64,000 nt of DNA, taken from assembly GCA_963794945.1 (NCBI GenBank), contig CAWCFT010000001.1, forward strand, positions 64,001-128,000, read 5' to 3'. Positions 39,039 to 63,509 of this stretch are shown piece after piece (positions within the stretch are counted from its first letter, which is position 1; each line of letters starts with the position of its first letter). Source of the stretch: Endomicrobiales bacterium. Its GTDB lineage: Bacteria > Elusimicrobiota > Endomicrobiia > Endomicrobiales > CAWCFT01. The translations under genes were made by a program, and so were the position numbers. Under the pieces are notes generated by a model. It saw only the letters and a program-made list of their open reading frames with translations. It was not told where the DNA came from and made no database searches.

Positions 39039-39074
39039 ATATTCGAGCCATAATATATAAATAACAAAGAAGAA

Positions 39075-39097
39075 AGGCGGATATACGTTATCCGCCT
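39075..39097. terminator. Conserved palindrome copy 1 (AGGCGGATA-TACGT-TATCCGCCT)
   Basis: Stem flanked by A and T tracts after hppA; 8-copy family. Confidence 0.75.
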
Positions 39098-39203
39098 TTC
39101 TTCTTTTTATGCCCATAAGCCGCCCGTAAACCTGTGGACTAAAGTCAGGGAAACGCGGAAACTCCCTATTGGATGGAAATATTATTTTTCATATTATCAG
39201 GTT

Positions 39204-39302
39204 ATGAAAACAACTTTGAAGATTTTATTAGCTTTCGCGCTTTGCGCTGAAACAGTGGCATTGGTCATAATGTTCACTCAATACCTGTCAACGGCAGGAT
39301 AA
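39204..39302 (+). CDS. Small hydrophobic peptide 1 (32 aa)
   Basis: MKTTLKILLAFALCAETVALVIMFTQYLSTAG; paralog at 39400 with mostly synonymous differences at shared residues. Confidence 0.75.
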   Translation: MKTTLKILLAFALCAETVALVIMFTQYLSTAG

Positions 39303-39399
39303 CCTGCCTTCAAGTACACACAGCCTACCACGATAAAAGTCGGTTTAAAGCCGAAAATACCGATTGCGAGCGGCAGTGCAAATGATGTATCGTTAAGGT

Positions 39400-39513
39400 A
39401 TGAAAACTGCCTTAAAAATACTATTAGCATGCATGTTGTGCGTTGTTACGGTCACTGTGATCGTTCTATTCGTGCAGTATATTTCAAGAAAGGGGTTAAA
39501 TCATGAAACTTAA
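39400..39513 (+). CDS. Small hydrophobic peptide 2 (37 aa)
   Basis: MKTALKILLACMLCVVTVTVIVLFVQYISRKGLNHET; 18/32 identical to peptide 1; overlaps DUF2892 start. Confidence 0.75.
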   Translation: MKTALKILLACMLCVVTVTVIVLFVQYISRKGLNHET

Positions 39514-39742
39514 CATGAGTGTTTTAGACAGGTTTATCCGCGTGCTGATCGTTGCTTTAATAGTCGTTCTCTATTTTACCCATATTATAAGCGGCACGGT
39601 GGCCCTTATACTCGGTATAATAGCCGTTCTCCTTCTTTTAACAAGCATAATAGGTTGGTGCGCTATATACGCTCTGCTCGGCATTTCCACTAAAACCGAG
39701 CCCGGCGGCGTGCAAAATAAACAGGAAGGGGCCGGAGCATAA
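39503..39742 (+). CDS. DUF2892 (YgaP-like) membrane protein
   Basis: NMSVLDRFIR...GWCAIYALLGIST. Confidence 0.9.
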   Translation: MKLNMSVLDRFIRVLIVALIVVLYFTHIISGTVALILGIIAVLLLLTSIIGWCAIYALLGISTKTEPGGVQNKQEGAGA

Positions 39743-39773
39743 GTAACTCCGGCCGGGGGTTAAAAAAGAAAAA

Positions 39774-39795
39774 AGACAGAAGACCATTTCTGCCT
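39774..39795. terminator. Conserved palindrome copy 2, between convergent genes
   Basis: AGACAGAAGACCATTTCTGCCT with long A and T tracts. Confidence 0.7.
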
Positions 39796-39828
39796 TTTTT
39801 CTTTTTACTTCCCCCATCCCTTGTATAT

Positions 39829-40245
39829 TTAAGAGAGTTGTGATACCTTTTCCAATACCTCGCACGCCTTTTCCTTATTGCCGTGAAGCATGAGGTCGCT
39901 TAGAGAGACTATACCCACCAGCTGATAGTCCAGACTTAGCACGGGCATGCGTCTTACTTTCAAATTTTCCATGCGCTCTGCGGCTTCTTCCACAAAATCG
40001 TCCTCAAAACATGTCTCAACGTTGACTGTCATGAAGTCGCCGGCCCTCGCCGTGTTCGGGTCGCTGCCTTTGGCTAAGGCCCTCACGACAATATCACGGT
40101 CAGTCAAAAGCCCGATAAGCTTATCCTCATTTATGACTGGCAGCACGCCGATATTGAAGTCCCTCATCAAAAGTGCCGCCTCTTTTATTGTAGTATCACG
40201 GTTTATAGTTTGTATTTTGTGCGTCATAATGTTCCTTATCTTCAT
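39829..40245 (-). CDS. CBS domain pair protein
   Basis: IRNIMT, IGVLPV, GLLTDRDIVVR, VRRMPV, GIVSLSDL. Confidence 0.92.
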   Translation of the reverse strand: MKIRNIMTHKIQTINRDTTIKEAALLMRDFNIGVLPVINEDKLIGLLTDRDIVVRALAKGSDPNTARAGDFMTVNVETCFEDDFVEEAAERMENLKVRRMPVLSLDYQLVGIVSLSDLMLHGNKEKACEVLEKVSQLS

Positions 40246-40305
40246 ACCTTCCTCCTGCACATCTGCAAAAAGCCGTTGATTCGAACTTATGCCCTGCCGC
40301 CTAAT

Positions 40306-40747
40306 TTAGACTTTCGCGTGTTCAAGCAGTTTTGCCTCAAGCTCAATGCTCGGCACGCTCGCCAATGCGATCGATATCGGGCAGCCTCCCTTGGCGGTAA
40401 GAGCGTGTTTCTGAAATTCCTCGTCACTTATACCCGGAACGTTTGCTTCAGTAACCAGTTTTATATTGCTTATCGCGTATCCTTCGCCTATCTTATCAAG
40501 TCCCACTTCGGCGGTCGTGGTTATCTTTTCCGGAGGATAGCCAGCCTTGCCAAGTATCATAGATAATGCCATCGAAAAACATCCGGCATGCGCAGCGTAC
40601 CAGTTCTTCAGGGTTAGTTCCGTGCCCGTTCTCGAATCTGGACACGAACGAATAATCCATCTTGGTATCACCGCTGCCTAACTCCATGACACCCTTGCCA
40701 GCTTTTATGGGCCCTGTCCAAATGGCCTTGCTTTTTCTGATGATCAT
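40306..40747 (-). CDS. osmC: OsmC family peroxiredoxin (indel near 40597)
   Basis: YSFVSRFENGHGTNPEEL plus AAHAGCFSMALS...GCPIS. Confidence 0.92.
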
Positions 40748-40907
40748 ACCCGCCTCCAGAATATACTCCTTAAACAATTCAAATATATATGCCCCTTTAA
40801 CCAGCATTCTATCACTTCACACGCGGATTTATGATTATTCAATTCGCAATTTTATTGACTTTTTTCGCGCTCGGTATATAACCTCGCTTAGGTTCTCTCT
40901 TTTCGAG

Positions 40908-41454
40908 TTATTTATAATAATATCTTATCCCTACAGAAGGCAGCCATCCCGCCATATTACCGAATTGAGAATTCAAACTACTGTACCCAAGCCCGGCTTC
41001 AGTTCCAACGCTCAGATCAGGAAGCCCTTGAAAGAAGAATTCAACTCCGAGGCCAACGGCCAGATATGTGTTCGTCCCGCTTGTCCCTGTGTTGGAATAC
41101 GGTTCGATGCCCAGCATGCCAAAACAGTACGCCTTTAGATGCTGTTCCTTTTTGAGCAGGTAAAGTATCTTGCCGCCAATGTCGGTCGTTGTTCTGGTTG
41201 TTATCTTTATTGAAACCAATAAGGCCTTCCGCACCGATTTTCCCGGGCCCCCAATAGCGGTAAGTTAGGAAATTCACTCCGCCGTTAATCTGAACGCTCA
41301 TGCCAAGTGCGTCTCTTCCATCTTCGCTGGCACTCTGCGATGACTGTTCAGTTCCGGACTCAATACTGTCGGACCGTTGTCTCGCTGTAACCCTTGCGAA
41401 CGAAGCGCAGGCGCATATAGAAAGCGCACAAAATGTCAGAATAAAACGTTTCCT
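40908..41454 (-). CDS. Outer-membrane beta-barrel protein (start codon reads AGG after GGAGGAG RBS; indel near 41185)
   Basis: Signal peptide KRFILTFCALSICACASFA, beta-strand pattern, C-terminal GIRYYYK. Confidence 0.6.
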
Positions 41455-41561
41455 ATCTCCTCCAATATTAAAATTTATGCTGAAATACTAACATTTTGCC
41501 TACCCGGACCGCAATGACCTGTTTCTTGTTTTTACCGACTATTTTCGCCCAAAAAGAAAAA

Positions 41562-41584
41562 AGGCAGATAAATTCTGTTTGCCT
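41562..41584. terminator. Conserved palindrome copy 3
   Basis: AGGCAGATA-AATTC-TGTTTGCCT. Confidence 0.7.
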
Positions 41585-41604
41585 TTTTTTACATATATTT
41601 CACT

Positions 41605-42876
41605 CTATTGATACTTGTTTATCGCGAACTTGTCGATCATGGTGCCGTCCTGTTTCCATGCGGTGATCGTCAGCATGTAGGAATTGGCCTCTACCGTTTC
41701 ATAGCACGGCTGGTCTTTCGGGTTGTACGAGAACGCGTCCCAATCGGTAGGTTTTACGTCATTGTAATATTTCGCCCCGCTGCGGCCCGTTGTGTAATAA
41801 ATAGTCCCGTCGCGCGGCTTTTTCTGTATCTTATCGCCTTTTATCGGATATGTGCGGTAAATAGCGTGTTCATGGCCGTTGAAAACAACATCGACATGAT
41901 ATTTGTCAAAAACCGGGCAGAATGCGGCTTTGACGGCCGGGTTGGGCCTTCCCAATTTGTTGTTGTACGGAGGTTTATGGAAAAGCACTATCTTCCATAC
42001 CTTGTTAGTGGATCCCAGGTCGCGTTTCAGCCATTTGCACTGGGCCTTCAGTATATCGCCGTATTTTGGCGCCTCTTCATCTTCCTGAGAATCAAGTATT
42101 GCGAAATGCGCGCAGCCGTAGTCAAAGGAATAAACCTGGCCCTTCAAAGAATCAGGGCCATTCAAAGGAAGTTTGAACTGCGCCAGATAGTAAGCCGGCC
42201 TGGAATCATCTTTTACCTTATAGTCGCAGTACATTTCATGGTTCCCAAGCACGGGCATGGCCGGTATGGTATCGATAACACCCCAGGCAGATTCAAACCA
42301 GCTTTTCCAATGGGCATAACTCTGCCCTATCTCCACAAGGTCGCCGACATTCATAAAAAATTTGGCGTCCGGATTTTGGGTGAAAGCCTGGTGAATGGTC
42401 TTGTCCCACGGCTGATAGATGAGTTTGTCCTTATCGCCGCTTTGGCTGTCGCCGAATACTATAAATTTGAATTCAAATACCTTATTGCCCTCGGTTGTAA
42501 ATGTGTGGGACTCGCCTGTAAGGCCTCCCGATGCCAGGGAATATATGTATTTTGTCCCGGGTTTGAGGCCTTTCAGTGTAACGCTGAAAATATTGCTGTC
42601 GGCAGGGTCACCGCCTGAGACCTTGGGAAGTTTCTCGCTATGCACGATTTTTTCTTTAGCAGCGCCTGACGAGCCCGCGGGTTTGTATATTATTTTGGCC
42701 TCGGACACCGAAGTATTGTCTTTCCACGAGATAGTCTGCGTCGTCTTTGGGTCATCCGACCACGTCAGTGTGATTTCTCTGCAGCCCGCCATGGCCGCAG
42801 ACAGCTCTCCTGCCGGAAAGACCGCGATGGCAAAAACTACCGCCAGGATCTTCAATATCGATCTTAGGTTCTTCAT
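41605..42876 (-). CDS. Secreted purple-acid-phosphatase-like metallophosphoesterase (FN3 plus calcineurin-like domain)
   Basis: Signal peptide, FGDSQ, GDLV, GNHE, FHKPPY, NGHEH. Confidence 0.9.
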   Translation of the reverse strand: MKNLRSILKILAVVFAIAVFPAGELSAAMAGCREITLTWSDDPKTTQTISWKDNTSVSEAKIIYKPAGSSGAAKEKIVHSEKLPKVSGGDPADSNIFSVTLKGLKPGTKYIYSLASGGLTGESHTFTTEGNKVFEFKFIVFGDSQSGDKDKLIYQPWDKTIHQAFTQNPDAKFFMNVGDLVEIGQSYAHWKSWFESAWGVIDTIPAMPVLGNHEMYCDYKVKDDSRPAYYLAQFKLPLNGPDSLKGQVYSFDYGCAHFAILDSQEDEEAPKYGDILKAQCKWLKRDLGSTNKVWKIVLFHKPPYNNKLGRPNPAVKAAFCPVFDKYHVDVVFNGHEHAIYRTYPIKGDKIQKKPRDGTIYYTTGRSGAKYYNDVKPTDWDAFSYNPKDQPCYETVEANSYMLTITAWKQDGTMIDKFAINKYQ

Positions 42877-42896
42877 ATGGTTCTGCCTGTTTAAAT

Positions 42897-42951
42897 ATTA
42901 TATAAAATTGATTGTTAAGAATGTATTAATAAATGTGTTGTTTTGTATTAA
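42897..42951 (-). promoter_or_regulatory. Pho-box-like direct repeats plus -10 box
   Basis: Minus strand TTAATA-N5-CAACAC-N5-TTAATA-N5-TTAACA-N10-TATAAT (11-bp period). Confidence 0.65.
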
Positions 42952-43062
42952 CAGGAACCTTAACTGCCGGAGCTGCCGGTCTTAACGCAATGAGCCGAAC
43001 AAACCGGCCGCTGATAGATCCGCAAATGTAAAAATACTCAAACTAAACATCCGAAATAAAAA

Positions 43063-43085
43063 TGGCCGATATATTCTATCCGCCA
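43063..43085. terminator. Conserved palindrome copy 4
   Basis: TGGCCGATA-TATTC-TATCCGCCA. Confidence 0.65.
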
Positions 43086-43122
43086 TTTTAGATTCAGCCG
43101 ACTTGTTACGTCGTTCGCACTT

Positions 43123-43723
43123 TCACTTCCACTTCAAAACGAACAAACATCTCTTATTCCCTCGGAATATACATTCAAGTGTGCACACAAGTGACTTCTT
43201 TACCTCCGGACTTCTCAATGGCGCCCTGCATCCAGCCAACGCTCCCGTTGCATATAACCTCGCCGTAGTTATCATGGCCCTTCAGCAAAATTGACACGCT
43301 CCCGTTTGTGTCTTCAACCAATGACAATTCGCCCTGAGTGAAAAAGAATTTCCAAATCTGCGGAAAACGCTGGGCGATGAAGTGCTGAGAGCCTATTTTC
43401 ATGAATATCGACATCGCCGTGTTAAGGTTTGTGTGCGATACAAGCCTCATCGCTTCTGTGATCTTTGGAGTATTGCCTTTAGGCAGCACGCTTGTTATTG
43501 CGTATTCAAACTCTTTAAGAAAATCCGATGAAAAATAAGATATCCCTAGAGTTGACCCACTGACGATCTTCTCATTTTCGGGTTTCATTTTAGAAATGAT
43601 TTTGTGGAAGCTCTCATCACCGTATGTTTTTATAAGATAATCTTTCAGCCCGCCTACTATTGTACCGCGTATCTTCGCTTCTTGTATGTTATCATCCATG
43701 ATTAGTGATACCTCTCTTTTCAT
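43123..43723 (-). CDS. V4R/H-NOX-like small-ligand-binding protein (indel near 43177)
   Basis: KIRGT, RFPQIWKFFF..G, GWMQGAIE..G; corrected C-terminus ECIFRGNKRCLFVLKWK. Confidence 0.6.
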
Positions 43724-43766
43724 TAGCCTCGACGTTAGCGGGAGAACACCTTGTTCTATGTCTTAT

Positions 43767-44117
43767 TTAGCTTAACAACCATTCCAAACCGGCCTTACAG
43801 TCGTCAGTTACCAGCAAGCGGGCTCCCCTGTTAACCGCCACATTCTCGGCAAATCCAGTGTTCTTGCTTTTTTCATTAAGCACCAGCGTCTTGATCGGAT
43901 AATTCATGACTTTTGCGGCACGTTCGCCCAGAAGAAATTTATCTTGATCAGTGGGCCCTCCGGACAAAGTCATCATATCAACCAAGATACGAGTACGGTT
44001 ACTAATTTTGCATTCTCCAAGCACCAGGTCTATTAGCGATGAATATTGCGAGAAAGAATACTCGCCAGTTAATTGAATTTCAAGGTAATCAGGCAGTATA
44101 TTAATTTTGTAATTCAT
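43767..44117 (-). CDS. STAS/SEC14-like hypothetical protein
   Basis: RILVD, FAENVAVNRG, GLEWL pattern. Confidence 0.6.
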   Translation of the reverse strand: MNYKINILPDYLEIQLTGEYSFSQYSSLIDLVLGECKISNRTRILVDMMTLSGGPTDQDKFLLGERAAKVMNYPIKTLVLNEKSKNTGFAENVAVNRGARLLVTDDCKAGLEWLLS

Positions 44118-44172
44118 GAGTTCCCTCTTGAAAAAATGAACAAAGACATTTTTAAATAATGAGATCTGATAA

Positions 44173-44718
44173 TTATTTGCGTTTCCCCAGTTTTTCTGCC
44201 TCGGTATGTTCAGATTCTCTCAGAACGTGCAGCATGTATTTGAACTGCTTCTTCCTGTAGGCAGGATTTTTCCAATCGTTGCCGGTTATCACCTTGCGGC
44301 AGTTCCTGCTCCTGCACTTGCAGATCAATTTGTAATCAGGGTTCGAATCCGCCAGGCCGTAATCAAAACTTATCTCCTCGCCCTTCTTTATATCCCTTTT
44401 AGCTATAAAATCCCCGTTCTCGTCGAATACAAGATTGCCGTCGCAGGAATGGTTGAAACACCATTCCACCGAAAGGTTGTTGAAATCAAGCCCGTCCGGA
44501 GGGATAAAGCCTTTCTGGGTGCCAATGCAGAAATCTATTATTTTCTTCTGTATGTCCATGGAATAATTCCTAAAATGTTTCCACGGGATAACGTCTTCAT
44601 AGTCTTTTCTGCTTATACCGCCAGCCACTTTCTGCCCTTTTTTGAAACCGAACACGGCAAAAGCACCAATACCGCCCTTGTGTATCATCGACGGCTTTAG
44701 TTCCAGCGATACTTTCAT
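44173..44718 (-). CDS. SET-domain protein-lysine methyltransferase with post-SET Cys motif
   Basis: GIGAFA, FNHSCDGN, DIKKGEEISFDY, CKCRSRNCR. Confidence 0.92.
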   Translation of the reverse strand: MKVSLELKPSMIHKGGIGAFAVFGFKKGQKVAGGISRKDYEDVIPWKHFRNYSMDIQKKIIDFCIGTQKGFIPPDGLDFNNLSVEWCFNHSCDGNLVFDENGDFIAKRDIKKGEEISFDYGLADSNPDYKLICKCRSRNCRKVITGNDWKNPAYRKKQFKYMLHVLRESEHTEAEKLGKRK

Positions 44719-44803
44719 TTTAGCTCCAGTAAATTCAGGCTATCAATTGACTAAACGAAATTATACATCTTCTCTGGCGCCTATTGCAAATCGAAATAAA
44801 AAA

Positions 44804-44826
44804 AGGCGGATAAAAAGTATCTGCCT
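44804..44826. terminator. Conserved palindrome copy 5
   Basis: AGGCGGATA-AAAAG-TATCTGCCT. Confidence 0.7.
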
Positions 44827-44861
44827 TTGAAATTATTAACCGGTCGTTCATTCCTGCCAAA

Positions 44862-45253
44862 CTACCGGTTTTTCAAAGAATTTTCCGCTAAAACCGTAGC
44901 TAGACCCCACACTGCGTTCAATACAGCTAACAACAGCAAACTCTTCAACCCAAGACTCTCGTTGGGCGGCATTTTCAGCGGTATGAAAATATACCACGCC
45001 GCGAACGTTGGCAGAAGGCTCAGCATCAAACCCTTAAAAACATAAAGGTCGTCATAGAACGGAATGAGGAATATAACACCCCACAATCCTCCCCACACTA
45101 CAGGTCGATAGATATTGTCCGGCTTCCATCCCGCCGCCGGTGCATTCCAAACAGTGTAACGACCCCAGCCATGCTGAACAAATAAAAGAACATAGCCTCA
45201 ACAAATCCGCCGAAAGCCCCGCTTGCGAACACTACAGCCAGTTGTTTACGCAT
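44862..45253 (-). CDS. Small multi-TM hypothetical protein (indel near 45135)
   Basis: ATG 45253 MRKQLAVVFASGAFGGFVE..., then VWGGLWG...LNAVWG. Confidence 0.65.
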
Positions 45254-45347
45254 ACTCACCTCTTGGACAATATATAGCGTAAATAGATCTACTTTTCAAT
45301 GCTAATTTCCAGATCTCGTCGATTAGAATTTTCTCAATATAGCTCTT

Positions 45348-45572
45348 TCAAAATATCAAGTCGCGGTGAAGCCGCATGCTTTTTACTCCCACACGACCAC
45401 AGTGCGGGCAAAGAGGCCTGCGCCTGCTCCCCACGGCTCCACCGACACCAAGCATAGCGGGAGCCCACACGTGCCCGCGGGTCATAGCCTTTATCGGTTT
45501 TCCGCACGCCGGACAAACACTAGACCCGCCCGGTATCTCTGTTTCACATTTGATGCATTTATTCATAACCAT
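45348..45572 (-). CDS. Small zinc-ribbon protein
   Basis: CIKC, CPAC, CPHC; GGAGAG RBS. Confidence 0.6.
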   Translation of the reverse strand: MVMNKCIKCETEIPGGSSVCPACGKPIKAMTRGHVWAPAMLGVGGAVGSRRRPLCPHCGRVGVKSMRLHRDLIF

Positions 45573-45584
45573 ATAATCTCTCCA

Positions 45585-46464
45585 TTATTGTTTCTTATAA
45601 TAACCCCTTCCACCGCTCTTTGCATGTTCCCTCTCCGCCTCTGCCTTTTGCTTTATGAAAGTCCCTTGGTCAAGCTCTTCGAAAGCCGTTGCCAGCTCTT
45701 CCTGAGTGTTCATGACTATCGGCCCGCCCCATGCTACCGGCTCTTTAAGCTGTTTTCCAGTCACAAATATGTAACGCAGGCTTTCCACAGCCTTGACAGT
45801 AACCTTTCCGGAGTCGCTAAATAGGACGAGTTTGCCCAGCCACAACTTCGCTCCATCGAAATCGCCCGCGCCTTCTATAACATAACAGAAGCTCGCGTAA
45901 CCTTTTTTCGCGGTGTGCTCAAGTTCCCTTCCCTTTTTTAACTTGACATCCAGGTATTCAACGTCCACTATTAAGTCCTTGACCGGCCCATAAACATCTT
46001 CATACGCGCCGGAGATAACCCTCACCGCCCCGCCCGGTATTGTTACCACAGGGAGTTCGTTCTCAAGTACGCCGCGGTAGCGCGGTTCCATCATCTTATC
46101 TTTGGCGGGCAGGTTAACCCACAGCTGTAAACCGTGCATCAACCCATCGGTTATCTGCGGCATCTCTTGATGTATAACCCGCCGCCCGCCGTCATCCACT
46201 GGACGTCCCCGGGCCTATCTTGCCCAAGTTGCCGATGCTGTCGCCGTGGTGGACAACGCCGCCCAGCATATAAGTGACAGTTTCTATCCCTCTGTGCGGA
46301 TGCCACGGAAACCCCTTGACGTAGTCCGCCGGGTCATCGGAGCCGAAGTGGTCCAAAAGCAGGAAAGGGTCAGTAAGCTCAGTATGGTCGTGCGCGAACA
46401 CCCTGCTGATCTTTACCCCCGCCCCATCCCACACAGTTTGCCCTTCAAGAATAATTTTTTTCAT
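45585..46464 (-). CDS. Pirin family protein (indels near 46180-46210)
   Basis: DPFLLLDHF, HPHRGIETVTY, HQEMP, QLWVNLP, GPIVMNT. Confidence 0.93.
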
Positions 46465-46623
46465 TTATGCCTCGTGCTGTTATCCTTTAACTATTTTATT
46501 AGATTGCGCGGGAATATACGCTAGTCTGTTTCGCTATTTTTTTGACTTTTTTCCAAACCGGGGCTGCCGGTCAAAATTTTTACAATGTACCTCCGCGCCA
46601 ACCAATCCGCGACGAACGTAAGA

Positions 46624-46678
46624 TTAACATATTCTTAACAAATAAAGCACATGAAAATTAACATTTATACGCTAAAAT
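46624..46678 (+). promoter_or_regulatory. Pho-box-like direct repeats upstream of MCP
   Basis: TTAACA-TATTC-TTAACA, third TTAACA at 46658, TAAAAT 9 nt later. Confidence 0.55.
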
Positions 46679-46859
46679 CGAGTAAAGATCGTGCGTTATA
46701 ATACCTGAGCCATGAAACAGAGCATGAAGGAACACGCGATACCGTTCACTGAAACTGCCGGGCCGTCGGCAGCCGTCCCTTAACACTCATACCACCACCA
46801 TCACCCCCAGCCGCCACCGCAATACTATGCTTTTGAAATCGATACAGGAACCACGGGAA

Positions 46860-48844
46860 ATGAAACATTTCAATAGCGTCGGGACTAAACTTATAATAAT
46901 ACTGACTTTCGGGATAGTGATATTGTGCTCCGTTCATGGAATGATCAATATAATTTTCCTTAGCAACAGCATGACAAGAGAGTTTGACGGAAGGATCGTG
47001 TCTATCGGCGAAAACCTCTCTGCCGGTATAACTGAACAACTAGGGGTAGCGCTGTCGTGCACAAGGGATACAATGATGAAGATCATGCTTGACCCTGTGA
47101 TCCCCGTATTCGATTCGGTTGTGGAGAAGGAAGACATAGCTTATGTAGTGCTATCCAAAAATGACGGCAAAGCTATCCTCACTGCCGGCAGCCGAGAGGC
47201 GCTAAAGGGCAGGCTTTCGGGCGTAAAAAAAGACATCCGCTCTCTCGGACAGTATAAGATAAGCCGTGTGTCGTTCAAAAGCGGTAATTACCTCGAAGTG
47301 AATATCCCCGTGCTAAAGGATAAAAATACCATGGGGGTTATAAGCCTGGGGTTCACAGATACCCGGCTCAGGAATATAATCGCGCACTCAATTTGGTTCA
47401 TGGCTTTGACTTCGCTTATAGGAATATCGATACTATGCTCGCTGATATATATTTTTATCGGTAGGTCGGTATGCGGGCCTCTTAAAGAGGTAACGACGGC
47501 GGCTAAGGAGATAGCTAACGGCAACCTGTCCCAAAAGGATATACGAGTGGAAAGCGCGGACGAGATAGGCCAGCTCGCTGGTGTGTTCAACCAGATGGCC
47601 GCCAAGCTCGGCGGGCTCGCGAAAAGGGCAAGGCTTATCGCCGAAGGCAATATAGGCTCCAATATTGTCGAGGAACGCTTAAAGGCCGGCGAGAACCTTG
47701 AGAACGCGGCTATGCACGGCGATGAAAAGACAAAGGGTGACCTTGAGGAAGCTTTCGACGGGATGCTTGCTGAACTACGCAAACTCACAGTTCAGGCCCG
47801 CAGAATAGCCGCCGACGACTTGAACAATCCTTTGCTTGACATGCGTATGCAGGGCGAGCTCGGCCAGGCATTCTCTCTTATGACTCTGAAGCTCCGCGAA
47901 CTTTCGAAGGCGGCCGAACGCCTAGCTGAAGGCGACCTTGCCGAGAGCATAAAAGGAACAGGCGTGCTCTCAAACGCTTTCAAAAAAGTAATAACAAGCT
48001 CCGAAGAAATGGCGCAAAACGCCGCTACGATAGCAACTGCGACCTTACCGTCACCGTGAACATCAGGTCGGACAGAGATTCCCTCGGCATCGCTTTCTCA
48101 AAAATGGTCTCTAACTTAAGGAGCCTTATAGCGAACGTCAAAGAGCAGTCCGAGATAGTGTCGCAATCTGCAAAGGTGCTTTCGGACATGGCTGACCAGT
48201 TTGCCCAGGCTATAACGTCCGCGATAACCCAAAACCTTCAAACCGCCGCGGCGGCGGCAACCGACGCCCACAATACCAGCGTCATGGGCGAGAAATCGCT
48301 AAAAACACTCGTTGACAAAATAATGATGATAAAGTCCGTCTCTGAAGCGTCGGCCGCCGCTATGAATAAATTATCGGACAAGTCGTCGCAGATAGGCGAG
48401 ATAGTAGGCATGATAACAAAATTCGCCGACCAGAGCAGCCTGCTGTCCCTAAACGCGAACATAGAAGCCGCCAGGGCCGGCGAAGCCGGCAGAGGGTTCG
48501 CCGTAGTCGCCGGCGAAGTAAGGAAGCTTGCCGAGAATTCATCAAACTCCGCGCAAGAGATCTCAAGTATCGTGGAAGAAGTCCGGGGCGACACAAAAGA
48601 AGTATCGGCCTCTTTCATCAACGGGCAGCAACATATAAACATAGGCGCTTCACTGACCAAAGAGTCAAGCAGAAAGTTCCGTGAAATAGTCGCCAAACTT
48701 GACAACATCTCGGGCCAGATAGAAAAAATGGCGGCTGCTTCGGAAGAAATTTCCGCCTCATCCCAGGAAACCACTTCAGCAGCTGCCCAGCTGTCCGGCA
48801 CAGCCAAGGTCCTGCGCGATGCAGTAAACAAATTCGTCGTTTAA
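46860..48844 (+). CDS. Methyl-accepting chemotaxis protein with multiple HAMP domains (indel near 48037)
   Basis: 2 TMs, [42 protein letters not shown]. Confidence 0.9.
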
Positions 48845-48917
48845 ACCAACCTCCGTATATACCAGGCTATCTGTACGATCAATCCCTTTGGCAGCTTTTC
48901 AGCGGTATAACGCCACT

Positions 48918-49319
48918 TCAGGCGCGGTTTGTTGAACACGTATGAACTGCACGATGCCGTGAATATCGCTTAGTTTTTTGTTGTATTCTGTTCTCGCGCC
49001 GCTCAGCGTTATTTCCACAGGCGCGTTTTCCGCGGCTCTCTGGGAACGTACATGATATCACACAGCTGAAATCGTCATCCCAATACGCCTTGAATGCCAT
49101 CACACTGTTGTCAGGCAACCTAAAACTCACTCTCGGATTCTCTGACACATCCATCGCCACATTAAAAATGAAAGTAAACGTAGTCTCCACTCCCGGCTTG
49201 ATGGCTTCGGGCGTGGAATAGAACATGCTCAGTTCTTGGGCCTGGTCTTCGCAGTGCGTCGTAAGCGCAGATGCCGCCAGCGCTAGAAGCGAAATAATAA
49301 TATAGTTTATGACCTTCAT
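48918..49319 (-). CDS. Secreted hypothetical protein (C-terminus probably frameshifted near 49030)
   Basis: GGAGG RBS, signal peptide, beta-rich N-domain. Confidence 0.5.
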   Translation of the reverse strand: MKVINYIIISLLALAASALTTHCEDQAQELSMFYSTPEAIKPGVETTFTFIFNVAMDVSENPRVSFRLPDNSVMAFKAYWDDDFSCVISCTFPESRGKRACGNNAERRENRIQQKTKRYSRHRAVHTCSTNRA

Positions 49320-51639: not shown

Positions 51640-51667
51640 TCAATAATCATTCAACCTGGAGAATAAA

Positions 51668-53488: not shown

Positions 53489-53541
53489 GTTTTTGACTTT
53501 AAGAAAACACATAATTTTAAAACAAAGGAGGTGATATTATC

Positions 53542-53859
53542 ATGAAGAGATTAATACTAATAATGTTGGCGTTCTCGTGTTTTTGTTTTGTAGCTGGCTG
53601 CGCAACTGTGGCTTCGCCATTAACCGGCTACATCTACACCGATGTTAAAGCGCCGGCCGCAGCTACCAGCAATTCAGGCTCCGAAAAAGTAGGCACAGCC
53701 ATGGCAACGTCAATTCTCGGGTTGTTCGCCACGGGTGACGCCAGCATACAGACAGCCGCCGTTAGCGCCGGGATAAAAAAGATCCATCATGTGGATTACC
53801 ATTCCACCAGCATCCTCGGCATCTACTCAACGTATACGGTAACCGTCTACGGGGATTAG
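53542..53859 (+). CDS. TRL-like lipoprotein
   Basis: Lipobox VAGC, SILGLFATGDASI..A, IHHVDY, TVTVYG. Confidence 0.85.
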   Translation: MKRLILIMLAFSCFCFVAGCATVASPLTGYIYTDVKAPAAATSNSGSEKVGTAMATSILGLFATGDASIQTAAVSAGIKKIHHVDYHSTSILGIYSTYTVTVYGD

Positions 53860-53871
53860 TCGTTCAACAAG

Positions 53872-53912
53872 GAAAAACCGTTAACACCTTTAAAGTGCTA
53901 GCGGTTTTTTTC
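53872..53912. terminator. Bidirectional terminator between convergent genes
   Basis: GAAAAACCGTTAACAC-loop-GTGCTAGCGGTTTTTT. Confidence 0.65.
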
Positions 53913-53938
53913 ATTATACCCAAATCCTCCACGTTCGA

Positions 53939-56040
53939 TCACATTGTTATTGTAAGAGGGTTAGTCCTTTTAAGGTCCGACAATTGTTTCTGAATCTCCT
54001 TCAAGTCGCCTGTTGGTTTCTGGCAAGAGCCCTTTTCACATATGTAGGCAGTAAAATTCGCATCTGCCAGCTTTTTGCCTTTCAGAAGTTCCAATACGGT
54101 CGGCTGGCCGTCCTCGCCAAGTGCTAACACCCTGCCAGGCAGGAATTTACGATAGAATGGTTCTACTAGTGGCGCCGGCATGGCCCTACCTATTGCGGTG
54201 ATCACAGCTATCTCAACACCGTAATAGTATGCGTCAAGGGCGATGAGCATCTGCGCCATGTTCTCTGGATCTATCTCCGCAAGATGAGAGCTGGTATCGA
54301 ATATCTCTTGTGTGTTTCTCAAAAAGTCATTGTTATAAGTAAGCGCGTAAAGCCTTAGGAGGTTGAGAGCGGTCATTGCGTTGGAGTTTGGGGTTGAGGT
54401 GTCGTAAAACTCCCTGCCGCGCACCAGCACATCTGTGAGGCCCGCGTCCGACAAGAAATAGCTGCCGGTCGCCTCGTCCCTGAAAAGTTCGTCCTTCTTT
54501 TCCTGCAGTTCAAGCGCCCACGTGAGCCAACTCTCGTCGAAGGTCGACTCGTAAAGCGTTATAAGCCCCTGTATAAGGAAAGCGTAATCGTCCAAAATCG
54601 CCTGCCCTGGTGCTGCTCCGGCGCGGTAATATCTTCTTAATTTTCCGTCTTTATACAGCCGTTCCTTGATGAATTTTGCAGAAGCTATCGCCGCGTCGAG
54701 GTATTTATGTTCGCCGAAGGCCTGGAAGGCCATTGCCATAGAGTGTATCATAAGGCCGTTGTACTCGGTTACTATCTTGTCATCTGTAAAAGGCCGCGGC
54801 TGTTGCCGCGTTCTTCCAGCAGTTTTTCCCTTGAGCGCTTTATGCCGGCTTCGTAACGCTTCGGCCAGAGCTTTACGTCTTTAAATGTGAGTACTGTTTG
54901 ATCGCCGAAATTCCCCTCTTCGCAGACTCCGTAAGCCGCGCAAAATTCGTCAGAGACTTCCTTGCCCAGCACAACCTCAATCTCCGGCTTTGTCCAGAGG
55001 AAATACGCACCTTCAACAGTCCCAGTGTTTGCGTCTTGAGCAGTGTAAAACCCCCCGCTGGAACTCGTCATCTCCTTCAGCACGTAATTGAGCGTTTCTC
55101 TTGCTATCAACCCGTACTCGGGCCTTTTTGTCAGCAGGAAAGCCTCGATATAGGCCTCGGAAAGGTTCGCGTTATCGTAAAGCATTTTCTCGAAATGCGG
55201 GACAATCCAACAATCATCAGTTGAATACCTGTGGAGTCTGCCTCCCAGCTGATCGTATATACCGCCTTCGGCCATCCTGTCGAGCGTAGTTTCGGCCATA
55301 GCGAGCGCGCCTTCTACCCCCCTAGCGTGCATACGCATAAGTAGCATTATCGCCCTTGAAGGAGGAAATTTCGGCGCCGCGTGGAAGCCTCCATTTAGCT
55401 TATCGAAGGTTAATGAAAGGTTATTGACAGCCGTCTTAAACACCGGGTTTTCCGTAGCAGGCAGATCGGGGTACGGGTGTGACCTTACCATCGGTATTTG
55501 CTCTGCTATATCTAGAGCCCGCACCGGGTCGATATTCTTTAGGTGTTCCAGCATCTGGTCGGCTGATTTAAGAAGGGCTGCTCGCTGGTTCGCCCAGAGC
55601 ATCTGAACACGCGCAAGCGCCTTTGTAAAATCATCTTTTGCAAAATAGGAAGCCGCATAGAACGGTTTAAGGTTCGGCGTAAGGAACACTGACATCGGCC
55701 AGCCGCCGGTACCGTTTATGGATATAACCGCGTTCATATAAAGCTGGTCGATATCGGGGCGTTCCTCGCGGTCAACTTTGACCGACACAAAATATTTGTT
55801 AAGCAGCTCCGCCGTTTCCGTGTTCTCGAAAGACTCTTTCTCCATTACATGGCACCAGTGGCAGGTGGAATAACCGACGGAAAGGAAAATAGGTTTGTCT
55901 TCTGAGACAGCCTTCCTGAACGCTTCGTCCCCCCATGGGTACCAGTCTACGGGATTATACGCGTGCTGCAGCAGATAAGGGCTTTTCTCATTGACCAGCC
56001 GATTTGCTTTGATTGTTTTGGGTGCTTGAGCCGTAATCAT
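53939..56040 (-). CDS. Thioredoxin domain-containing protein YyaL/SPATA20 (DUF255) (indel near 54800)
   Basis: [52 protein letters not shown]. Confidence 0.93.
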
Positions 56041-56260
56041 AATTGCGCCTCTTTATTTATTCTTTACTTCTCACCTCATTATATTATAAAAGGTATGAAT
56101 ATAGCCTGATTGTTTTCGCTTTTTTATTGACTTTATTTAGCTTCAATAGCCGGCCCCGCCGGGGCGGTGTTTGTAAAATATTTTAAAAATAATGCCCAAG
56201 ATCATCCCCCCGAAACGGGATCATCCTGGGCTTATTCGTGCGATGCATATAACTTTACTA

Positions 56261-56626
56261 TTAATATGTCGTATCTTTAATTGTTTTTTTCTTTTCATTC
56301 GACAGGATGCCGTTTACATCCATTTTATCGCCGTCTTTCATCTTTGACACCTTTCCGTTTGGCAGCCTGTAAGTGCCATTTTTCATCACCACCGTGCCGT
56401 TGGACAGGGTTAAGTTAACATCCATCATCTCCATCATCCCGCTCCTTACCACTATCATATTTCCGTCATTCATCATGACGTAATCGCCGGCATTGAGCGG
56501 TTGGTTGTTTGTTCCGGTAACGGTCATGGTTTCAGTTGAGGTGAAATAACTCGGCTCCGCATTTACCGCGAGAGTGAAACCTCCGACAATAAGCATTGCT
56601 GCCAAAACAATAAAATAATTTTTCAT
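56261..56626 (-). CDS. Secreted Met-rich DUF6799-like protein, copy 1
   Basis: Signal peptide; MMNDGNM...LTLSNGTVVMKNG...MKDGDKMDVNG. Confidence 0.75.
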   Translation of the reverse strand: MKNYFIVLAAMLIVGGFTLAVNAEPSYFTSTETMTVTGTNNQPLNAGDYVMMNDGNMIVVRSGMMEMMDVNLTLSNGTVVMKNGTYRLPNGKVSKMKDGDKMDVNGILSNEKKKTIKDTTY

Positions 56627-56905
56627 CGTAATACTCCTTGTTTCGTTTTTACAGGATTAGCGGCCGAACGCCGGCTCTGCCAGCCATTGAGCGCTATTCC
56701 CTTTTGATTGCATCCTTTAGAACCTTACCTCCATAATTCTCGCCTTTTGCCCTTATTATAATGATAATTTCCTTTGTGAGGACAGATCTCAGAGGCTCAC
56801 CTCTTAGGTTAACTTTATCCTATTACATAACGCGCCGGTATGTAAGTGGCTGATTCTCTTTTCAAATGACTTAATTCTTCTCTTACCGTGTTTTCAGAGA
56901 AGCAT

Positions 56906-59423
56906 TCACCGTTCTGCGCCAGAGGTGGATCTTCCTCTGGCACGACCTGTTCCTACAGAAATCGGAGGATTCCATGTCGCGGTATTGATCTTCATGTCAA
57001 CTATCAGCGGGAGATGGTCCGAGGCGATTTTATCAAGGTCCGTCCTTGATACTTCCACGCGAGTGACCTTGAATTCCTGGCTGACGAAGACGTGGTCTAT
57101 TCTAGCGACAGGATAACGGCTAAAGAAAGTCGCTTTGGGTCTATGGTCATCAAGCTCTACCTGAGCGTCGCGGAGGACTTTGCTGATAATGTGGTATAAC
57201 CTCGAAAAAGGAAAAGAATTCAGATCCCCGCACAAAATTACCGGCCCGCGGCAGTCCGGGCTGTTTAGCCATTCCGTGCCTAGTAAAACATCCATATGCC
57301 GTATCCTTTCCCGTGGAAAGATTCCGAGGTGCGTATTAAAGAAATTGATCTCCGTTCCCGCAATGTTTATTACCGCCCAGATAACCCCGCGGGGTTCTAT
57401 AACCGAGTTCTTAGTTTTGACGGGAAAACGCCCCGCGCGGACCAGCTCCATCGGAAAACGGCTGAGCAGCGCTATGCCGTATTGTTCCTGGCCTACTACA
57501 ACAAGGGGATGAAAATGATAAGCCATCTCAAGTTCTTTGGCTATCAGGTGGGTCTGATCAACCTGTCCGGTGCGTTTGCGGCCCATGTCCAGTTCCTGAA
57601 GCGCGACGATATCAGGTTCGTGGCGCCCGATGGCGCGCGCGACCCTTTCAGGCGATATCTTTCCGTCGGTTCCAACACAAGAGTGCACATTATACGTGAT
57701 TACCCTGATACCGCCCGGGGCGGTTATTCTCTTTTGGGCAACCGGCATTCCGGTATATTGTTCAGGTTCTTTCGAAGGCCTGCGTTTCAAGAACCGCAAA
57801 ACCGCGAAGCGCAGGTCCAGCGGAGTTAAAAATGTTTCTTCTCTCTTTCTCGGAACAACATCAACCGGAAGCAAGGCAAAACCCGTGGTCTCCTCGATCC
57901 CTGGCCCGCCGTGCGATCCGTGTTCTACTGGGAAGGTCATAGGCCTATGTCCCGGCCTGTATCCAATAAAACTCAGGTCGCCTGCGTTGTGATGATGGCA
58001 TAGGCTTATCAAGTCTTGAGTTAGCTGGTCCAGATTCGAGCGCCCCTCGCCTAATATATTTTTCGCATCGTGCGGCAATACAAACTCTCCTTCTTCAGTC
58101 CAGGCGCGCGCTTTTCCTCCTTCTTCTGCCAGCATAACAACGGGTATCTTAGCTTTATCTACTAATTCCCGCGCGAAGCGGTGCAGTATATCCTTGTTCA
58201 TCTTTCGAGGTAAATATATATCTCCCTTCGGTCCAAAAGCCGTAACGACAAGCTTCTTATCAGGACTATAGGCGCTATCATCGTCCGCGCGTGTTCGGAC
58301 GTTTTTATTATAGAATGAGAACCCCAGAAAACTGACGCGCCGCAGCCGTTCCGCGTTCTTATCAATGCGCTGCAGGCGGAATTCTTCATTCAACCCTTTC
58401 AGGACTTCGGCTACCGCGTCTTCAACGTTTTTTTTGTATTTAACTGCGTAGGAAACGGAATCTTCCTGCCCGTGATCCGAATAGATCCAGAGGTCATAAT
58501 TGCGGCGTGAAGAATGCATGGCGTCCCGGTATATCTTCGCAATAGCTCGGTCGATACCCTGCAGAGACCAGGATCGCCGCCCGCGAGGATGGGCCGCGGT
58601 TATGGGCCACCTCGTCGTAACCTATAAAATTCAAATGCACAACCGGAAGCCCGCGCGCGATATCGAGCTTTGCCCCCATTGCCGCGAGGTCCCTCAAAAG
58701 GATACAGATTAGGGCCCGTATATAAATAAACTGGAGTTCTTTTATAATATTCTCGTCGCTGAACAACCCGCGAATAAAATCGAATATACCCATCGCGAAT
58801 TCTAGCGCCATTAACACGAATACCCGAAGCATTGATGGGATATGGGTCAACGCCAGGATAAAAGATTTAAACGGGTTGACGTCTTTCCATAGTTGGCCCC
58901 ATCCCACGGAAGTCACACAAAAATGTGATTCCTGAGCGCCGCCCCTGAAAATATTTGAATACGAACTCCCACCTTCCAGGAGCCCCTCTCCTTTTAGCGC
59001 GAGCCTCTTTTCTACTTCCATTACCGCGTCGCTTTCGTACATCCGTAAAACCTTTCCGCTGTCCCTGTCTAGGTACCCAAACCCCGGCACTACTTGCTTG
59101 ACTCCGTAAAATAATTCACCCTGGACCGAGGGAGTGCTCGAGGGCATCCCCGGGTAAAGCGTATGAAGCCTGTAAAAATTATTCTCCTTGAGTTTTTTAA
59201 GAAAAGGCATTTTATTATCAGCGAGCGCCTTGTTTAGCTTCATCCGTGATAAACCGTCTATCTGCAGGAGCACTAGCCCGGGCTTTGTCTCAGCCCCTTT
59301 TATCCTTGGAAAAGGCAAAAGCCTGGCTGACCACTCGCTTAATGAGAATAGCCGCGGTATATTGAGAAAGAAATTAAATATTTTTTCACCTGATCTTAAT
59401 TTTGATGAGACAGTCTCAGTCAT
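56906..59423 (-). CDS. Alkaline-phosphatase-superfamily domain fused to endonuclease/exonuclease/phosphatase domain (indel near 58575)
   Basis: QIDGL, PSSTP, GYDEVAH, SDHGQ, GSHGG; then TYNVH, ALQE, NTHL, GDLN, IDHVF, SDHLP. Confidence 0.85.
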
Positions 59424-59509
59424 AGTGCCGCTGTTTAGTTCAATATATTGCCCAAGGCCATCCCGCAGGAGCGTAACATTCCCGGGCTTTCATGGGTGGA
59501 GTCTGCACG

Positions 59510-59875
59510 CTAATGTGCCGGGTTGTTAATTTTATGCACTTTGTCGCTCGACAGGTTGCCGTTCACATCTATCCTGTCGCCGTCTTTCATCTTATTAACC
59601 GACCCATTAGGCAGCCTGTAACTGCCGTTCTTCATCACCACCGTGCCGTTGGGCAGGGTTATATTAACGTCCATCAACTCCATCATCCCGCTCCTTATCA
59701 CCATCATATTTCCATCGGTCATCGTGACGTAGTCACCCATAGCGAGCGGCTGGCTGTTGACCCCGCTAACAGTACCGGTATTGCTCGCCGTTAAATATCC
59801 CGTTTCCGATTCCTCCGCCAGCGCGTAACCACCTATCATAAACATTGCTGCAACAACAATTAAATAATTCTTCAT
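59510..59875 (-). CDS. Secreted Met-rich DUF6799-like protein, copy 2
   Basis: Clear paralog of 56261-56626, including upstream leader. Confidence 0.75.
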   Translation of the reverse strand: MKNYLIVVAAMFMIGGYALAEESETGYLTASNTGTVSGVNSQPLAMGDYVTMTDGNMMVIRSGMMELMDVNITLPNGTVVMKNGSYRLPNGSVNKMKDGDRIDVNGNLSSDKVHKINNPAH

Positions 59876-60121
59876 CGCCATACTCCTTGTTTTGTTTTAA
59901 TGAACAAGCCGCCGAATGCCGTTCTTTCATGGCATGGAGCGCTTTTATCTTTAATTTCTTTTAACCTTGCCTCCATATTCTTTCCTATTAGGTCTAACTT
60001 AATTGTATTACTTAATGCGCTTGCATATGCTCGGCTGATTCTCAATCCCCATGACTTAATTCTTTCCGGCATTTTTGTTGCCGCCTAACACATGAAATAG
60101 CCGTATTTTGATAAAACATAA

Positions 60122-60145
60122 AGGCAGATAGATCTCTATCTGCCT
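60122..60145. terminator. Conserved palindrome copy 6
   Basis: AAACATAAAGGCAGATA-GATCTC-TATCTGCCTTTATGTTT. Confidence 0.75.
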
Positions 60146-60181
60146 TTATGTTTATTAGAAATTGCCGATTCGTAATTTTAC

Positions 60182-60556
60182 TTAATTGTTATCTTCCCAT
60201 AATTCAAGGACATTGCCGTCGGGGTCTTGTATCTCAGCCCAGAAACCCCATTCGCCCGCAGCGGTTTTAGGCGTTATCACCCTGCCCTTCTCAGCTTTGA
60301 CCTTTGAGAGGCTCTTATCTATCGATTTAACTGTTATGACCGGCATGGGCGTTTCCTTTTTATTTACCCGTTTGAACAATCCGCCGTTAACCGCGCCCTT
60401 CTCCACAGGCACCCAGTTCTTGTCCACTCTCACGGTAGTAATGTGTGAATGCCCCGCCTCGTGTGATGATATCTCCCACCTAAATACCTTTCTATAAAAC
60501 TTCCCAGCCCTTTCCACGTTGTCAGCCGGCATATCAAAACCTGTTACATTATCCAT
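60182..60556 (-). CDS. VOC/glyoxalase family protein
   Basis: FYRKVFRW, GAVNGGL, DPDGNVLELWE. Confidence 0.9.
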   Translation of the reverse strand: MDNVTGFDMPADNVERAGKFYRKVFRWEISSHEAGHSHITTVRVDKNWVPVEKGAVNGGLFKRVNKKETPMPVITVKSIDKSLSKVKAEKGRVITPKTAAGEWGFWAEIQDPDGNVLELWEDNN

Positions 60557-60731
60557 AGATTTTACCTCCAATAAATTCTGATTTGACTTACGTAATCAAG
60601 GAGCCGCACTCCCCCCTACAGGATATATATTTGCGCCGCCAGTTCCAATTACCTTTTTCCACTTTTCACTGACCTTTTTACAGGTTAGCGCTTGTCATCG
60701 AATGAGAAGTTTTGCAGTAAAAAATAAAAAA

Positions 60732-60754
60732 AGACAGATAAATTATATCTATCT
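60732..60754. terminator. Conserved palindrome copy 7
   Basis: AGACAGATA-AATTA-TATCTATCT. Confidence 0.65.
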
Positions 60755-60782
60755 TTTTCCCTTTTAGTCCTTTTTAGCAAAG

Positions 60783-61193
60783 TTAGGGAAGTTTGACGCC
60801 GTCATCACATTTACCATCATTCGCAAAATACTGAATGTAATTCTTTACCGCTTCGGCCATTTGCGCCATATCGGCAGGCTTTGGGATATAATCCAACACA
60901 TATTTCTTTAGGCCTTCTTCATTCGGCCCTGCCGATGTGGCCGCTGTGAGCAGGACAATAAGAACATTCTCAGTGAAGCCTTGTTTTACTATCTCCCTTA
61001 TTGTATCCCAACCGTTCAGAACAGGCATGTATAGATCCAATAATATTACCCCAATAAATCCATTCCTGATCTTTTCAATACATTCCTTACCGTCGCAAGC
61101 TACAATAACATCCATTCCCTCTTGCCCAAGGTAACGGGATACTGCATCCCGTATCCCGGGTTCGTCATCAACGATCATGATCTTTGCGGTCAT
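60783..61193 (-). CDS. Single-domain response regulator (REC)
   Basis: IMIVDDE, LLDLYMP..NGW, LTA, YIPKP. Confidence 0.92.
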   Translation of the reverse strand: MTAKIMIVDDEPGIRDAVSRYLGQEGMDVIVACDGKECIEKIRNGFIGVILLDLYMPVLNGWDTIREIVKQGFTENVLIVLLTAATSAGPNEEGLKKYVLDYIPKPADMAQMAEAVKNYIQYFANDGKCDDGVKLP

Positions 61194-61405
61194 TTTTCCA
61201 CCTATATTTTTTGTAGCCACGTTACATTAGCCGGAGAATTCGCCGACCCGGCCGCGAATACTAACGCCTTCAGTCATTTAAATATTTTTGTATTAATATA
61301 TTACATTATTCACAACTTCCCTGCAACAGCATGAAATCGCGTCAGACGGATTTTCGCACTGCTGCCCCGGTTTTTTCTCGAACGAAGATAGCTGCAAATA
61401 AATAA

Positions 61406-61428
61406 AGACAGATATGTTTTATCTGCCT
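61406..61428. terminator. Conserved palindrome copy 8
   Basis: AAATAAATAAAGACAGATA-TGTTT-TATCTGCCTTTATTTATTT. Confidence 0.75.
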
Positions 61429-61505
61429 TTATTTATTTAATGAAGTTAGAGAAAACGCCGTACTCCGTAAGCAAATTATTGCTTTAGCCACCCACAGCGT
61501 TCCTT

Positions 61506-63430: not shown

Positions 63431-63509
63431 TTTTGATCCGGCTGTCAGGTTAAATCGAGATAAGATAACGCATTTATTTTTTCGTTGCCATCTCGAACGC
63501 CACTTAAAT

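Follow-up and report, generated by a model that had tools for sequence, protein, structure and literature searches.

What are the palindromes that recur between the unrelated genes of an accessory region in an Endomicrobiales bacterium (phylum Elusimicrobiota): recombination sites, binding sites of a protein, or terminators? The question is raised by a stretch of 64,000 nucleotides (GenBank assembly GCA_963794945.1, contig CAWCFT010000001.1, positions 64,001 to 128,000), hereafter the window, which is C1:64,001-128,000 of a source genome of 2.9 Mb in 19 contigs, 86% complete. Coordinates with a contig prefix refer to contigs, so that window position 39,075 is C1:103,075. A reading of the letters alone (the original prediction) had offered three answers: attC- or pdif-like sites of a cassette-capture system, a matS-like chromosome-binding site, or a proliferated terminator repeat. 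The third fits our results best, with the difference that the repeat is restricted to one gene island and not spread genome-wide. We conclude that the palindromes are probably bidirectional intrinsic terminators that go back to one ancestor and were copied locally together with neighbouring promoter DNA. The evidence lies in their hairpin and T-tract anatomy, their position after stop codons, their clustering, their related loops, their covarying stems, and their absence at the same genes elsewhere.

All eight cores reported in the window are present and flanked by A and T tracts (copies 1 to 8, Table 1). Two more, copies 9 and 10, lie just beyond the window, the latter at C1:132,945. A stop codon precedes nine of these ten island copies by 10-89 nt, and two of the nine stand between convergent genes. 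The predicted location past gene 3' ends therefore holds, while the range of 20-80 nt given for it was too narrow. The exception is copy 10, which lies between divergent genes, ends no gene, heads the promoter block of a PAP2 gene and is the most decayed of the set. On the assigned transcript strand, which we chose ourselves for copies 2, 9 and 10, T makes up 7-8 of the 9 nt counted from the base of the stem in each of the ten island copies, whose fold energies range from -4.1 to -15.3 kcal/mol. This strand is the better folded one in copies 2, 4, 7, 8 and 10, and the two strands are about equal in copies 1, 6 and 9.

The stems covary. The four basal pairs beside the U tract are paired in 40 of 40 island cells, four of them by G-U and three with a change on both sides. 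Over an alignment of 125 cells, 92% pair and seven are changed on both sides, values matched by 1 and 2 of 500 shuffles, although these statistics are inflated by the relatedness of the copies and copy 9 is misaligned in the alignment. The loops are related as well. Nine are 5 nt long, their mean identity on the transcript strand beats that of shuffles (p=0.005), and they include GAATT, GAATA, TAATT and again GAATT (consensus GAATW), which points to common descent. The outlying copy on contig C2 shares 44 nt with copy 5 at 86% identity, tail included. The spacers had been described as a fixed length of unrelated sequence. Six of the eight in the window are indeed 5 nt long (5, 4, 5, 5, 5, 6, 5 and 5 nt from copy 1 to copy 8), but those of copies 9 and 10 measure 11 and 6 nt, so that the island holds spacers of 4, 5, 6 and 11 nt, with only 6 of 10 at the modal length, and the sequences are not unrelated. 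The inference once drawn from conserved arms around a fixed core, that of a recombinase or dimeric-protein site, fails because spacer length ranges from 4 to 11 nt, because the loops are akin, and because changes in one arm go with changes in the other.

The family is concentrated in the island. A two-arm profile built from the eight window copies has 20 matches of at least 20 bits in the genome, compared with 2, 1 and 1 in three genome shuffles. Ten of them, at 31-41 bits, fall within the 30 kb of C1:103,075-132,945. Outside the island only C2:130,983 and C17:47,633 exceed 30 bits, and the matches at C10:9,865 and C4:80,048 are weaker. Counting these two, the family has about 14 members, 10 of which occupy about 1% of the genome. 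The C10 match is a doubtful member and may be an older generic terminator, because a similar hairpin follows the same aminotransferase gene in the comparison genome G003. In line with the original prediction, the first 39 kb of the window lack the motif, and no profile match precedes 103,075 on C1. A count made independently of the motif, and hence free of the circularity of a profile built on window copies, considered 66 hairpin loci flanked by A and T tracts: the family accounts for 6 of the 7 inside the island and for 2 of the 59 outside (Fisher p=2e-6). An ordinary terminator repeat had been expected to show an even genome-wide spread and a variable spacer; the spacer does vary, whereas the copies are clustered. 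No Rfam family reached its gathering score in the window.

The homologues of flanking genes that we examined do not carry the hairpin. Among the 29 best-scoring orthologues of the pyrophosphatase gene upstream of copy 1, none has this stem after its stop codon, and one shows a partial likeness (GCCGATA/TATCGGC). Four paralogues within the genome (VOC at 55% identity, NmrA at 48%, and two hypothetical genes) have no hairpin within 120 nt of their stops, and the hairpin is also missing at three of three loci with SET homologues (51-81% identity) and, as judged by eye, at three of three VOC homologues. Hence the hairpins were probably installed locally. The comparison genomes all belong to families other than that of the source genome. 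Exact matches were found in 7 of the 400 other genomes of the phylum, one in each, and their spacers measure 4, 5, 8, 8, 8, 9 and 10 nt; a reversed control matched 2. One of these seven, in a genome of another family (G004), follows kdpE and has the GAATA loop of copy 4, while the kdpE of the source genome has no hairpin. Over GTDB, the stem occurs at no fewer than 120 unrelated loci, nearly always singly and terminator-like, with loops of 3-11 nt. Two copies were seen in 1 of the 120 loci listed, 40 of which came with flanks of only 300 nt, and 17 viral loci had no second match above 26 bits. This shows a workable stem that arises often as a terminator, and makes the clustering peculiar to this lineage. 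In many Pseudomonas genomes the stem recurs with a 6-nt loop, in one locus read by eye between a tRNA cluster and tuf; we treat these occurrences as convergent. DNA uptake sequences of the Neisseria and Haemophilus type, which may form terminators, have a single arm that is strongly over-represented across the genome. Single arms of our family occur here at the expected frequency (53 against 52.4, 39 against 37.4 and 22 against 22.3 expected), so the family is not an uptake sequence and this candidate was rejected.

Genes of the island also have a promoter motif in common. Many of them are preceded by the motif AAGTCA-N10-GAA-N31-TANAAT, in which AAGTCA-N10-GAA is probably an activator site centred near -52. 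A refined profile has 29 matches in the source genome, compared with 2 and 1 in shuffles; 10 are in the island, or 14 with weaker sites. Elsewhere the motif occurs at C6:77,421-94,060, C9:68,631 and 101,573-124,547, C14:76,295, C16:5,595 and C17:47,037. Its position there before a BON-domain-like gene and before genes that we take to encode Ku, MsrA, catalase-peroxidase and CsbD suggests that the motif-bearing genes form a general-stress regulon. The exact pattern is multi-copy in the source genome (6) and in G016 (5), G003 (4) and G011 (2), does not rise above background in the 89 genomes of family f10, and was seen in one genome of another class. Being multi-copy in three other families, the motif is native to several families of the order. 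The motif cluster of G003 has no hairpin of the family in 100 kb, so the regulon does not need the hairpin.

Hairpin and promoter meet repeatedly. A motif promoter follows copies 1, 3, 6, 7 and 10 at varying distances, and a sigma-70-like promoter for the SET gene abuts the T tract of copy 5; no hairpin accompanies the promoters of OsmC, pirin, desaturase, GAPDH and DUF255. Among 435 pairs of motif-bearing promoters there are three outliers (z 4.0-4.5), all in the island: the two DUF6799 paralogues, VOC with PAP2, and pirin with desaturase. The last two pairs join unrelated genes, beside which two promoters thus seem to have been copied. The VOC and PAP2 promoter blocks both open with a hairpin, copy 7 in one and copy 10 in the other, and can be aligned through the promoter at z 13.5. 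No observation points more directly to a duplication of hairpin-plus-promoter DNA beside an unrelated gene than this pair, the only clearly homologous one among the copies followed by a motif promoter.

From these observations we propose that the copies terminate transcription and would thereby insulate short, separately promoted gene units; that they descend from one ancestral terminator; and that they may have spread within the island by short duplications or by homology-assisted recombination among AT-rich intergenic modules, the outcome being self-contained gene units collected in one accessory island. Several results weigh against this proposal. The similarity between copies does not measurably rise with their proximity (p=0.14-0.26), so that serial tandem duplication is not shown, and beyond the tracts the flanks have weak pairwise similarity apart from the block of copies 7 and 10 (next-best z 4.5, over short stretches). 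The upper five pairs are paired in 42 of 50 island cells only, with eight unpaired (four of them A-C) and no G-U. Several copies are weak hairpins, of -4 to -8 kcal/mol. In copies 3 and 5 the transcribed strand forms the weaker fold of the two (-4.1 against -9.5 and -7.1 against -11.2 kcal/mol) and bears A-C mismatches, two in the case of copy 3; the predicted absence of a bias of mismatches towards pairing on the transcribed strand thus stands for these two, which are the minority, copies 2, 4, 7, 8 and 10 behaving in the opposite way. Finally, 5 nt is the modal loop length in 9 of the 14 copies as against 11 of 121 in unrelated bacteria, among the matches listed. Given the related loops and the 44 nt shared by copy 5 and the C2 copy, this preference is what common descent would lead one to expect, and no recombinase geometry is needed for it.

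Table 1. Features of the window (positions in the window; promoter motif as defined in the text)
Feature	Position	Strand	Remarks
Copy 1	39075..39097	+	perfect 18-bp stem with tracts, 5-nt loop; 10 nt past annotated pyrophosphatase stop
Copy 2	39774..39795	-	between the convergent genes for YgaP-like and CBS proteins; 4-nt loop; better fold on minus strand
Copy 3	41562..41584	-	loop GAATT; 20 nt past metallophosphoesterase gene; promoter motif then follows
Copy 4	43063..43085	-	loop GAATA; compensatory T-A outer pair; 89 nt past gene for 182-aa hypothetical protein
Copy 5	44804..44826	-	35 nt past small membrane-protein gene
Copy 6	60122..60145	-	6-nt spacer; 36 nt past VOC gene
Copy 7	60732..60754	-	loop TAATT; 28 nt past receiver-domain gene; promoter block follows
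Copy 8	61406..61428	-	77 nt past NmrA-like gene
Promoter motif	39142..39197	+	before first of two tandem small membrane open reading frames
Promoter motif	39337..39392	+	before second tandem small open reading frame and YgaP-like gene
Promoter motif	40806..40861	-	upstream of OsmC
Promoter motif (weaker)	41486..41541	-	just after copy 3
Promoter motif	46493..46548	-	upstream of pirin; 68% identical to fatty-acid desaturase promoter
Promoter motif	50458..50513	-	upstream of fatty-acid desaturase
Promoter motif	50565..50620	+	upstream of GAPDH-glgB
Promoter motif	56078..56133	-	upstream of DUF255 thioredoxin-domain gene
Promoter motif	56817..56872	-	upstream of first DUF6799 paralogue
Promoter motif	60002..60057	-	after copy 6, upstream of second DUF6799 paralogue
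Promoter motif	60620..60675	-	before VOC and behind copy 7; shares 70% identity with PAP2 promoter, which lies beyond the window
Membrane pyrophosphatase	36620..39064	+	PF03030; NF001950 above cut-off; core gene
Accessory gene island	39503..64000	.	stress-regulon-like; runs on to about C1:133,800, with copies 9 and 10 there

Other explanations have to account for the same facts. The arms could be sites for a dimeric DNA-binding protein of the matS type, or for an RNA-binding regulator of terminators, the sequence itself being selected. The strong confinement to one region, where about 1% of the genome holds 10 of the 14 copies, the 5-nt modal spacer, and the co-regulation of the island through a shared promoter motif would suit such sites, as would copies 3 and 5, which retain most of the sequence and yet lose transcript pairing. 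We nevertheless consider this explanation unlikely, as both arms change together around island spacers that can be 4, 6 or 11 nt long, every copy has its A and T tracts, nine of ten follow a stop codon, the stem is not conserved in relatives (of 400 genomes of the phylum, 7 hold a single exact match), and G003 has an equivalent cluster of motif promoters with none of these hairpins in 100 kb. Local copying would be superfluous if the island, or most of it, had been imported en bloc from a donor lineage where this stem is the usual terminator. The patchiness of island genes (VOC is found in 3 of 400 other phylum genomes) agrees with import, as do the SET gene with its four other members in a 90% cluster, the lack of such members for 7 of 10 tested proteins, and the loop shared by copy 4 and the kdpE copy of G004. 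However, copy 1 terminates a class-wide core gene, the GC content of the island is in line with that of the host genome, and the promoter motif is at home in several families of the order. Moreover, no genome or virus was found with a cluster of the stem, two copies being present in 1 of the 120 GTDB loci listed and a second one above 26 bits in none of the 17 viral loci. Import of this kind seems improbable to us.

Site-specific recombination sites of the attC, pdif or att type, serving cassette capture and doubling as terminators, are what the layout first brings to mind, since the copies punctuate unrelated, mostly self-contained accessory genes, copy 1 sits at the junction of core and island, and 8 of 10 island copies have the same orientation in our strand assignment. 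The details speak against them, and we regard them as very unlikely. As had been predicted, no recombinase lies in or near the window: the five tyrosine recombinases found are on contigs C7, C12, C15 and C17, one of them (on C12) being XerD. In this 86%-complete genome, where the enzyme could be missing, the best score for IntI was 80.9 bits against a cut-off of 265, and neither PF07508 nor PF00239 was matched, so that no resolvase or large serine recombinase was identified; a serine-recombinase attachment array was rejected since no cognate serine recombinase was matched. According to the excerpts of PMC5027507 used here, attC sites have the boxes RYYYAAC and GTTRRRY in a long imperfect hairpin, and most integron cassettes are promoterless. 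Such a box pair is missing within 150 nt of all 14 copies, and the island genes have their own promoters; with 14 motif promoters in the island, and neither boxes nor IntI, integron cassettes were rejected. The dif and pdif sites are described, in the excerpts of PMC6449649, as 28 bp long with two 11-bp Xer boxes around a 6-bp centre. The spacers of our copies, of varying sequence and of 4-11 nt, do not follow this 11-6-11 layout, no copy matches the dif pattern used here, and these sites were rejected as well. The homologous genes examined elsewhere also do without any such site. In the read contigs of one of three DNA runs (0.14 share, possibly the source sample), none of 15 joints out of 27 ends at a copy, and a second read test gave no joints from 22 contigs, the coverage being in both cases far too low to count either way; one 284-nt read contig spans copy 5 colinearly with two other letters. 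The hairpins might lastly be scars of a tiny non-autonomous mobile element, of the type of MITE (miniature inverted-repeat transposable element), REP (repetitive extragenic palindrome) or SPRITE, co-opted as terminators. There are a few copies on other contigs (C2, C4, C17), other dispersed repeat families exist in this genome, and the pneumococcal SPRITE (PMC3049150, in excerpt), a repeat near the ends of genes, looks like a terminator and has A/T termini. We give this origin hardly any credence, as only about 45 nt are shared, the copies are clustered and not dispersed, no profile match lies at the end of an insertion sequence, and the arms are not over-represented genome-wide (53 against 52 expected).

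The dif pattern does match elsewhere, at C1:9,426, C5:49,836 and C5:82,562, which are dif-like 28-mers with a good XerD-type arm. XerD on C12 is the only recombinase of Xer size found, and XerC may be missing from the assembly.

The island, whose left edge copy 1 marks, contains genes for YgaP, CBS, OsmC, metallophosphoesterase, SET, pirin, MCP, desaturase, GAPDH and GlgB, followed by DUF255, two DUF6799, EEP, VOC, REC, NmrA, S1-domain and ABC genes. The membrane pyrophosphatase that precedes it is present in 111 of 122 genomes of the class. Its neighbours vary among 14 relatives of other families, so that no synteny breakpoint can be placed at the island edge. Many genes are split by frameshifts, which are presumably assembly errors, and the C-terminus of the pyrophosphatase is probably frameshifted in this assembly. 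After copy 1, two paralogous small hydrophobic open reading frames (39205-39303 and 39399-39512, plus strand, 32 and 37 aa) each stand behind their own motif, in a 195-bp tandem duplication of promoter and small open reading frame; both frames were too short for the 50-aa open-reading-frame list. The four other members in the 90% cluster of the SET-domain gene (44173-44718) lie on short contigs (0.9-5 kb) of other assemblies, and near-identical homologues of the hydrolase and of PAP2 lie on contigs of 8.2 and 3.7 kb; the tested proteins without other members in their clusters include pantothenate kinase and GAPDH, and this difference hints at a recent transfer of SET. A metagenome scan with SET yielded three loci, none of which is the island of a close relative. 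The phosphodiesterase/EEP fusion gene (56985-59391), split by a frameshift, has a 74.5%-identical paralogue at C17:48,784-51,189, in a second stress-type island (CsbD-like, BON, OmpA and receiver genes), where a hairpin copy and a motif promoter occur as well, one of each. To the right of the island, at about C1:137,700-143,900, two opposed copies of an IS110-family transposase surround SIR2-like and DndB/HEPN genes, a defence-type pair.

The window has further repeats. Inverted repeats at 235-269, 28538-28572 and 28612-28646, two of them in tandem, are what we take to be CIRCE-like elements. Dispersed AT-rich repeats of the ATCAAA type lie at 154-226, 17071-17274, 21552-21680, 24266-24388, 26262-26308 and 31689-31770, often as inverted pairs between genes, and other palindromic families at 5589, 15840, 14437, 17122, 12447 and 13935. 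On contig C8, ARAGORN reports a tRNA with anticodon TTA ('tRNA-Stop') at 108,533-108,607, possibly a sequencing error or a pseudogene.

How does the family compare with known systems? An ordinary bidirectional intrinsic terminator is a stem-loop just past a stop codon, with an A tract before it and a T tract after it. The copies have the same anatomy and position, and their stem occurs singly in many unrelated bacteria; the difference is that other terminators of this genome, and those at orthologous positions, have unrelated stems, whereas here ten share one. A matS-like site is a fixed-length palindrome that recurs across a large domain of the chromosome and is conserved along with its protein, whereas our family has a variable spacer, spans 30 kb only and is not conserved in relatives (no search for a cognate protein was made). 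SPRITE, in the excerpts of PMC3049150, has an 18-bp duplex, a long U tract and about 30 copies across the pneumococcal chromosome. It resembles our family as a terminator-shaped repeat without known mobiliser near gene 3' ends and between convergent genes, and differs in that the island family has a 9-bp core and sits mostly within one 30-kb island. With pdif modules and integron attC cassettes, as excerpted from PMC6449649 and PMC5027507, the family shares palindromic sites between accessory genes, but here there is no 11-6-11 Xer layout, no RYYYAAC/GTTRRRY boxes and no IntI, and the genes have their own promoters.

By analogy, the family would appear to work most like the PeSLs (promoter early stem-loops) of T4-type phages, which the excerpts of PMC2839356 and PMC4122927 describe as repeated promoter-terminator modules that mediate gene exchange in variable regions. 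Common to both are repeated terminator-like stem-loops with a shared stem consensus, placed between unrelated small genes of a variable region, often beside a shared promoter type, and with degraded copies. It is not a member, as it lacks the fixed composite structure: the PeSL unit, in those excerpts, consists of stem-loop, promoter and ribosome-binding site, while here no fixed link joins the hairpin to a promoter. Sequence is shared over about 45 nt here against about 100 nt in PeSLs, the island promoter looks activator-dependent, and the setting is a bacterial chromosome instead of a phage. Crossovers and mini-circles are features of the phage PeSLs. The likeness raises a doubtful but consequential reading, in which the hairpins would be the joints of a gene-collecting hotspot that works without a recombinase, crossovers in shared terminator and promoter modules slotting genes in. 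Incoming genes would then come at once under a lineage-wide, apparently undescribed stress promoter, in a chromosomal counterpart of the PeSLs. We found no published description of the hairpin family or of the promoter motif in open-access full text.

Read as locally copied terminators, the hairpins make this locus a small and clean example of an accessory island that reuses one terminator and one promoter type. They also call for caution, since a palindrome that recurs between unrelated genes is not necessarily a recombination site. Should crossovers take place at the hairpins, shuffling of the PeSL type, published for T4-like phages, would extend to a bacterial chromosome and would explain how new genes are wired into a stress regulon. 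The promoter motif, for its part, offers a testable way into stress regulation in a phylum for which few regulons have been described.

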